From Escherichia coli (GTDB lineage Bacteria; Pseudomonadota; Gammaproteobacteria; Enterobacterales; Enterobacteriaceae), in assembly GCF_003334385.1 (NCBI RefSeq), contig NZ_QOWN01000196.1: DNA of 352 nt. One strand, written 5' to 3'. Below are positions 1 through 352 of this stretch, piece after piece (positions within the stretch are counted from its first letter, which is position 1; each line of letters opens with the position of its first letter). The notes under the pieces are model-generated. The model was given only the letters and a program-made list of their open reading frames with translations, did not search any database and was not told where the DNA came from. The position numbers were made by a program, and so were the translations under genes.

Positions 1-352
1 TTCGCCATTCCCGTATACAGAAAGGTATTCACCGTCTTCGTGTGAATGCCCATTTCACTGGCAAGGCGACAGGGTCTCGACTGGCGGTAGACGTAGCCAA
101 ACATCACCACCATCTCTGACATCGTCAGCGGACGGGCAACGCTGTTATACGTCCATACACCATTGCGTATGGCATCACTTATCTGCTCACCATCACGGAG
201 TGATTCCGCACCCAGTTGCAGAAAATGCCGTCCCTGGAACATGCAGCGCATCAGTCTGCCCAGCAACGTATCACAGATTATCAGCCAGGATTCGTCAAAG
301 TCCGGGATATAACGGCGGTTCTCCGGCAGGAAAAACTCCCTCGCCAGTATCA
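1..352 (-). CDS. Internal fragment of a protein-coding gene (hypothetical protein, possibly a DNA-binding regulator); 5' end lies beyond position 352 and 3' end beyond position 1
   Basis: Seen in sequence: the reverse-complement frame whose codons pair with + positions 350..3 is open for all 116 codons with no stop. The translation has a balanced, globular-like composition with a mixed hydrophobic and charged pattern. Leu is encoded mostly by CTG (8 of 12), as in enterobacterial genes. The other two minus-strand frames have stops near their starts. The antisense + frame is also open but encodes a Ser/Pro/His-rich low-complexity peptide. Function is not established; no database search was possible. 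Confidence 0.72.
9..131 (-). other. Putative helix-turn-helix-like DNA-binding segment within the CDS (residues 74-114 of the fragment: PLTMSEMVVMFGYVYRQSRPCRLASEMGIHTKTVNTFLYTG)
   Basis: Inference from residue pattern only: a hydrophobic helix-like stretch (SEMVVMFGYVY), a short basic turn (RQSRPCR), then LASEMGIHTKTVNTFLYTG with a hydrophobic-x-x-acidic-hydrophobic-Gly-hydrophobic ... T-x-T-V-x-x-x-L spacing. This resembles the second and third helices of sigma-70 region 4, LuxR-type, Mor/C-type or CaiF-type HTH motifs. Not verified by any profile search. Confidence 0.3.

Follow-up and report, generated by a model that had tools for sequence, protein, structure and literature searches.

The 352-nucleotide stretch of Escherichia coli DNA analysed here (contig NZ_QOWN01000196.1 of assembly GCF_003334385.1; its whole length is referred to as the window) is quite probably an internal piece of a prophage cargo gene for a 157-amino-acid (aa), adhesin-linked regulator that is homologous to TosE and combines a pseudo-receiver domain with a LuxR-type helix-turn-helix (HTH) domain. 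The coding status of this gene, the fold of its product, its family relationship and its gene context were established in the analysis. Minus-strand frame 3 is the only one of the six frames that is open through all 352 bases, and the window is 100% identical to positions 49892-50243 of Escherichia phage PhiR5_1 (PV340545.1) as well as to E. coli chromosomal prophages. In PhiR5_1, the complete gene spans 474 bp (PV340545.1 49819-50292) and encodes 157 aa. The sole open frame, the full prophage identity and the substitution pattern described below identify window 1-352 (minus strand) as an internal fragment of this gene that covers residues 26-141 plus the partial codons 25 and 142, with both the 5' and the 3' gene end lying outside. 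The gene had already entered the databases in 2000 under the names "ORF-156A/C/D/E", from the P-Eib prophages of strain ECOR-9 and without a function, and the RefSeq name of the product is "hypothetical protein". The 352 bp of the window equal the longest contig listed for a partial 116-aa "hypothetical protein" of E. coli (P0011), and the window is probably an entire short assembly contig. No Rfam RNA family matched in the window, and the PADLOC defence models gave no match for the query protein, on which account a defence gene was dismissed.

The open reading frame (ORF) is a real gene under purifying selection. Pairwise ratios of nonsynonymous to synonymous substitution rates (dN/dS) ranged from 0.09 to 0.26 for family members of 49-93% identity, with values for the C-terminal domain below those for the N-terminal domain in most pairs with a defined dS, and full-length copies preserve start codon, ribosome-binding site and length over the range of 49-100% identity. 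The family is very small: when 1.84 billion representative proteins were scanned in full with phmmer, 33 clusters emerged at E<=1e-3, nearly all of them from E. coli and one from Citrobacter farmeri, while a 1869-aa match in the representative search (P0061) was repeat-driven and discarded as spurious. Conservation within the family is highest in the blocks LTMSEM..F.Y and KTVNTFLY.G..KNG. In the NCBI naming, TosE copies are called "helix-turn-helix transcriptional regulator" and another related cluster "LuxR family transcriptional regulator", whereas the ORF-156 cluster is "hypothetical".

By profile comparison and predicted fold, the C-terminal domain (residues 99-157, of which residues 99-141 are encoded by window 1-131, minus strand) is a LuxR/GerE-type four-helix HTH domain. 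A first profile built from 35 family members gave four matches in the PDB at E<10, all of them to LuxR-type proteins (VqmA, GerE) and all in register on LTxxE...KTV. With a broader profile to which members of 28-49% identity had been added, GerE was retrieved at E 9e-4, VraR at 0.022 and VqmA at 0.05, and other LuxR-type domains and EvgA also followed GerE and VraR. Profile-profile alignment by hhalign placed residues 100-150 over GerE 12-61 with a probability of 95.1% and E 3e-8. The AlphaFold2 model computed on the family alignment, with a mean predicted local distance difference test score (pLDDT) of 90.8 and a predicted template modelling score (pTM) of 0.85, has C-terminal helices at residues 102-113, 118-125, 129-142 and 150-154, and thus a four-helix domain whose HTH is formed by helices 2 and 3. 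In line with this, the first 40 Foldseek matches of the model were all full-length two-domain LuxR-type regulators, nearly all of the NarL/FixJ type (RcsB at the top, EvgA, FixJ, DesR, LiaR, VraR and DosR), plus VpsT. Matches in general family libraries were sparse. Pfam searches over the 35 members yielded stray matches at E 0.015-0.1, among them GerE at E 0.1 in a single member, and PHROGs returned families of unknown function alone (phrog_6585, phrog_2014).

In the predicted domain, helix 1 (residues 102-113, MSEMVVMFGYVY; window 87-122, minus strand) is preceded by the conserved L100-T101 of the 'LTxxE' motif and aligns with GerE LTKRERE-VFELL; L100, T101, M102, S103, E104, M105, V107, F109 and Y111 are nearly invariant around it. 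Helix 2, the first helix of the HTH (residues 118-125, PCRLASEM; window 51-74, minus strand), aligns with GerE TKEIASEL, and the gap between it and the next helix in the model, residues G-I-H 126-128 (window 42-50, minus strand), would form the turn. Residues 129-141 of the putative recognition helix 129-142 (TKTVNTFLYTGMA; window 3-41, minus strand) align with GerE EKTVRNHISNAMQK, and K130, T131, V132, L136, Y137 and G139 are nearly invariant here. The complete recognition helix reads TKTVNTFLYTGMAK; the end of the window cuts off one residue, and helix 4 lies outside it. An HTH had been proposed from the letters of the window at positions 9-131, whose in-frame minus-strand translation, PLTMSEMVVMFGYVYRQSRPCRLASEMGIHTKTVNTFLYTG, corresponds to P99-G139 of the full protein (residues 74-114 in the numbering used there). 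This proposal was borne out: the ORF contains the 37-residue segment that had been singled out, the predicted structure has an HTH domain in that region rather than lacking one, and in the PDB and hhalign comparisons the family profile matched LuxR-type domains. The layout of the motif had to be shifted, though. Because the AlphaFold2 helices lie at 118-125 and 129-142, the HTH proper comprises residues 118-142 (window ~1-74), and SEMVVMFGYVY, which had been taken for its first helix, belongs to helix 1 of the domain, a supporting one.

The N-terminal domain, whose residues 26-98 are encoded by window 132-352 (minus strand), is read as a degenerate receiver-like, or pseudo-receiver, domain with (beta-alpha)4 architecture on the basis of the modelled fold. 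Four beta-alpha units and an additional short strand were modelled, without an alpha5, which falls short of a complete (beta-alpha)5 receiver fold. Asp52 (codon at window 270-272, minus strand), located at the C-terminal end of strand beta3, is invariant in the family alignment including members with only 31-33% identity; T7, E13, G15, F32, L58, F63 and G65 are the other family-invariant residues of this domain. The position of D52 would be equivalent to that of the receiver phospho-acceptor Asp, an equivalence taken from the secondary structure of the model and not from a residue-level structural alignment. On the same positional basis, the acidic pair of receivers is replaced by T7-R8-N9, and neither the conserved Thr/Ser after beta4 nor the Lys after beta5 was found in the family alignment. 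The prophage loci contain no histidine kinase gene; a BtsS/BtsR-like pair in loci L007-L011 belongs to the host flank past the prophage end. Of the features of a phosphorylatable response regulator of the NarL/FixJ type, the complete receiver fold, the full set of catalytic residues and a nearby kinase gene are all wanting, although the fold as such is receiver-like. A Cys/His-containing stretch upstream of the HTH part, to which the original prediction had drawn attention, does exist (CDTLLGRLMRCMFQGRH, residues 51-67 of the full protein) and corresponds to helix 3 and its flanks, but a metal site finds no support, as C51, C61 and H67 vary in the family.

In at least ten loci, the gene directly follows one for a trimeric autotransporter adhesin with a YadA anchor (eib or eib-like), with both genes on one strand. 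They include the loci of PhiR5_1, strain 2015C-3121, P-EibA and P-EibE; a variant with 69% identity accounts for five more, and one with 49% identity for another. Within the lambdoid prophage, the adhesin-linked gene is found at the tail-fibre end. More distant family members follow RTX-type secreted proteins. The DNA of one distant member, P0051, is 99.9% identical to the gene in uropathogenic E. coli CFT073 that immediately follows the one for the large repeat adhesin in an operon encoding, in this order, a PapB-family regulator, TolC, an ABC exporter, HlyD, the repeat protein, a 160-aa HTH protein and a 169-aa HTH protein. Since this order matches tosRCBDAEF (PMC5956150), P0051 is TosE (WP_001024300.1). 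As judged from sequence comparison, the query protein is a full-length homologue of TosE: BLASTP aligned 156 of its 157 residues (1-156 versus 1-154) with 34% identity and E 8e-34, and phmmer gave E 3.3e-22 in the 1.84-billion-protein library. The two proteins are also alike in size (157 versus 160 aa), in their two-domain layout, in the motifs LTMxEM and KTV..H/F.Y...KNG, and in the location of their genes directly 3' of a surface adhesin gene on the same strand. TosE and TosF have been described as conserved LuxR-family proteins associated with motility suppression and are listed among the regulators that control fliC expression (PMC5956150, PMC10392849); direct BLASTP of TosF against the query gave no significant similarity.

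How the regulator might act can be sketched from these findings. We infer that the protein would bind DNA via helix 129-142, probably as a dimer, with the conserved residues K130, T131, V132, N133 and Y137 at or close to the surface that faces the DNA. Between the adhesin and the regulator gene, all loci retain a terminator-like hairpin with a T-run (z -3.25), located at L001:5862-5892 in PhiR5_1, at L018:4862-4890, and at L019:2458-2485, where it is annotated as a stem_loop. In the most divergent locus (L017, 49% identical) the structure of the hairpin is kept while the sequence of the stem has changed, and no promoter-like site was found in the 88-nucleotide (nt) spacer between eib and ORF157. 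The regulator gene might be expressed at a low level by read-through of this hairpin, as in other adhesin operons, and the protein would then be made together with the adhesin, at a lower level. By analogy with TosE and TosF, it may couple adhesin expression to other genes for surface structures or behaviour, for example by repressing motility; an action on the eib promoter may occur as well.

Several points weigh against this interpretation. Pfam gave no match for either the window fragment or the full protein, even at E<=10, and the query did not reach the threshold of the Pfam GerE profile (PF00196); single-sequence searches of NCBIfam and, with phmmer, of the PDB were equally without a match, family membership thus being drawn from profile and fold. 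When aligned by hhalign with the receiver domain of DosR, the N-terminal domain showed no similarity (E 0.34), for which reason the fold is what the receiver-like assignment is built on. The query locus has no TosF-like partner gene, the next ORF not being of the LuxR type, and the mechanism of the TosE effect on motility is itself described as unknown (PMC5956150). Moreover, the family member in phage 2B8 has no adhesin gene beside it, nor has the chromosomal copy near hpaBC, which is widespread and 55% identical. Finally, K-12 lysogens of the P-Eib prophages, which thereby carry ORF-156, were reported by Sandt et al. (2002) to express little Eib unless ibrAB is supplied; if so, the ORF-156 protein would not be a sufficient activator of eib.

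A possible, if somewhat doubtful, alternative, which overlaps with a role as adhesin-linked, TosE-like regulator, is that the protein is a dedicated local activator or repressor of the adjacent eib gene and binds a conserved inverted repeat at the eib promoter. Eight loci have such a repeat, CATCAGAT-N11-ATCYGATG, at a distance of 47-73 nt before the eib start codon (for example at L001:4693-4719 in PhiR5_1, L002:4492-4518, L007:3691-3717 and L018:3586-3612), where it forms an island of conservation amid otherwise diverged upstream DNA. The eib upstream region of PhiR5_1 (record positions ~48,500-48,660) contains it in the form CATCAGAT-N11-ATCCGATG. The repeat directly abuts the -35-like hexamer of a sigma-70-like arrangement, TTGAAC-17-GATAAT; further on comes a conserved palindrome, TTTGTATACA(G/A)ATAA, that contains the -10-like GATAAT. 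We consider the repeat a candidate operator for a regulator, and LuxR-type dimers typically bind inverted repeats of this kind. A precedent is provided by AutA/AutR, which are encoded beside upaB and bind the upaB promoter (PMC4844996). Furthermore, Eib expression differs strongly between static and shaken growth, and the studies concerned name no responsible transcription factor (PMC4352079, PMC5450701), which likewise speaks for a local regulator. On the other hand, the eibE locus is devoid of the repeat in this form, although ORF-156E hardly differs from the P0020 variant, at whose loci the repeat is present, so that repeat and regulator do not co-vary. As the recognition helix is identical in all prophage variants, a link between the two cannot be tested by sequence comparison. 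The family members without an adhesin gene in phage 2B8 and near hpaBC do not fit a purely local function either, and TosE, the closest characterised homologue, has been linked to motility and not to the expression of tosA, which is regulated by TosR.

We regard it as improbable that the protein binds no DNA on its own and serves as an auxiliary heterodimer partner of a host regulator of the NarL/FixJ type, such as RcsB, or as a decoy. RcsA, BglJ, MatA/EcpR and DctR act as heterodimer partners of such regulators, and the degenerate receiver-like domain, the lack of a kinase gene nearby and the rank of RcsB as top Foldseek match would fit such a function. Pointing in the same direction, the hhalign alignment of the family with EcpR extended over 132 columns and took in both domains (E 3e-3, yet with a probability of only 10%), and the best NCBIfam near-matches of TosE were EcpR at the top (17.5 bits versus a cut-off of 300) and BglJ. 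However, none of these similarities is strong or attains a family cut-off. Heterodimers of RcsB with an auxiliary partner do bind DNA, so that the HTH would remain in use, and the positions of the recognition helix belong to the most conserved part of the family, as expected of a DNA-contacting surface.

Very little speaks for the protein being a phage antiterminator, an activator of the Mor type or a module resembling sigma-70 region 4. Of the affinities named in the original prediction, which had placed the motif with sigma-70 region-4-like or LuxR/Mor-like domains and had suggested an activator or antiterminator-type protein of a phage or mobile element, the LuxR type and the location of a regulator on a prophage hold up, the former through the GerE matches given above, whereas sigma, Mor and antiterminator have to be given up. 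One of the 35 members gave a weak Sigma70_r4 match, but LuxR-type domains rank higher and a sigma factor is rejected in view of the missing region 2, the N-terminal domain being alpha/beta and receiver-like; for a Mor-like or antiterminator protein, none of the searches gave a match, and such a gene would be expected elsewhere in the prophage. Equally hard to credit is the view of the gene as a decaying remnant that no longer has a function, since the dN/dS values, the retained start codon, ribosome-binding site and length, and the confidently predicted fold of full-length copies stand against the numerous partial or truncated database entries and the 287-bp, internally deleted remnant that is the only form in most Shiga toxin (Stx)-converting phages (933W/EDL933-Stx, VT2-Sakai and others). 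The 287-bp remnants also occur in Min27 and in the PA series (e.g., NC_000902.1 39330-39616 and CP111102.1 10728-11014), match in two pieces within residues 25-157 and have been annotated as tiny hypothetical proteins, one or two per remnant; they probably explain phrog_2014.

Further features were noted around the gene. A small conserved ORF 3' of the regulator gene, ORF-60A (L001:6406-6579; L018:5398-5580; L007 ~5500-5650; L019 ~3010-3170), encodes a hydrophobic peptide of ~40-60 aa with the core ...(R/K)KRYT(A/T)GAMCFMLFVWLGGVV...; it is uncalled in several annotations, is absent from phage 2B8, and its product probably spans the membrane once. The P-EibA prophage has surface-protein genes on both sides of the regulator gene and ORF-60A, with eibA lying upstream and the gene for the autotransporter EaaA (eaaA) downstream (L018:5673-9680). 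Genes for a TolC-like protein and an ABC exporter are found within 2 kb after the 49%-identical member that stands 3' of a YadA-type adhesin gene (L017:2881-6237); both are similar to those for type I secretion in the tos operon, and the two kinds of locus may share a history. The copy adjacent to hpaBC occupies positions 5001-5495 in loci L012-L016 and is preceded by 1.1 kb of AT-rich, ORF-free DNA (3850-5000), with DcuA/DcuB fragments on its 3' side and PerC-family genes at ~8600-9500. About 6 kb from P0049, a 39%-identical member, there is a gene with PAPS_reduct and DUF3440 domains that runs off the end of the locus (L003:9559-9678, L004:9548-9667). This is the domain pair of IbrA, the known activator of eib, and the co-location may be coincidental.

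Placing the protein among the TosE-like LuxR-type regulators provides a testable function for a 'hypothetical protein' of E. coli, including Shiga toxin-producing strains, and of phages, and a candidate regulator is now found directly beside the eib adhesin genes. Going considerably further, one might envisage lambdoid prophages as carriers of a portable cassette of adhesin plus TosE-like regulator that rewires the host on lysogeny, from swimming to chains or aggregates when Eib is made, with control exerted via Asp52 or a host partner such as RcsB and no dedicated kinase. We think this rather unlikely as it stands; if true, the regulator of the cassette would be the missing factor behind the control of Eib expression in static versus shaken cultures.

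Compared with known systems, the domain architecture of the query family has several counterparts. Its C-terminal domain differs from that of GerE/NarL (PF00196) in a short helix 4 (150-154) and a C-terminus whose length varies within the family. DosR has the acidic pair, the Thr and the Lys of active receivers and is phosphorylated by DosS/DosT. Relative to DosR/DevR of Mycobacterium tuberculosis (3c3w), the query retains Asp52 alone, and its N-terminal domain bears no significant sequence similarity. Among the small two-domain orphan LuxR-type regulators of E. coli, the family resembles BglJ, RcsA, CsgD and also EcpR (MatA), which likewise combines a non-canonical N-terminal domain with a LuxR-type HTH and is tied to a pilus, and hence adhesin, operon; the EcpR gene opens its operon, though, whereas the query gene stands after the adhesin gene. 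AutR/HyxR, together with AutA, offers another case of a LuxR/GerE-type regulator gene adjoining that of an autotransporter adhesin (upaB/hyxB), and AutA/AutR have been reported to act globally in addition to binding the upaB promoter (PMC4844996). From gene context, APECO1-1682/1683 would correspond to hyxA/hyxR. The proteins are larger (264 and 253 aa), HyxR is similar to the query in the HTH only (E 0.024) and HyxA not at all, and in the absence of detectable kinship beyond the HTH they were dismissed as relatives. The prophage regulators PsrA, PsrB and PatE of enterohaemorrhagic E. coli are of the AraC type and belong to another family.

The closest parallel is thus TosE, with differences in the setting of the two genes. 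The tosE locus, with its type I-secreted RTX adhesin TosA, is part of a pathogenicity island (PAI-aspV), whereas the query gene accompanies a YadA-type trimeric autotransporter on a prophage, and tosE is followed by tosF as a second LuxR-type gene, the query gene by a small hydrophobic ORF. In the recognition helix, NTFLYTGM of the query stands against YTHIYKAK of TosE, and the DNA specificity is therefore probably unlike that of TosE. ORF-156 represents a subfamily of TosE-like regulators that had so far gone unassigned and carries a pseudo-receiver domain; as a kind of system it is not new. A familiar pattern, that of an adhesin locus whose terminal regulator tunes other surface traits, is thereby extended from pathogenicity islands to prophage cargo and from RTX proteins to trimeric autotransporters.
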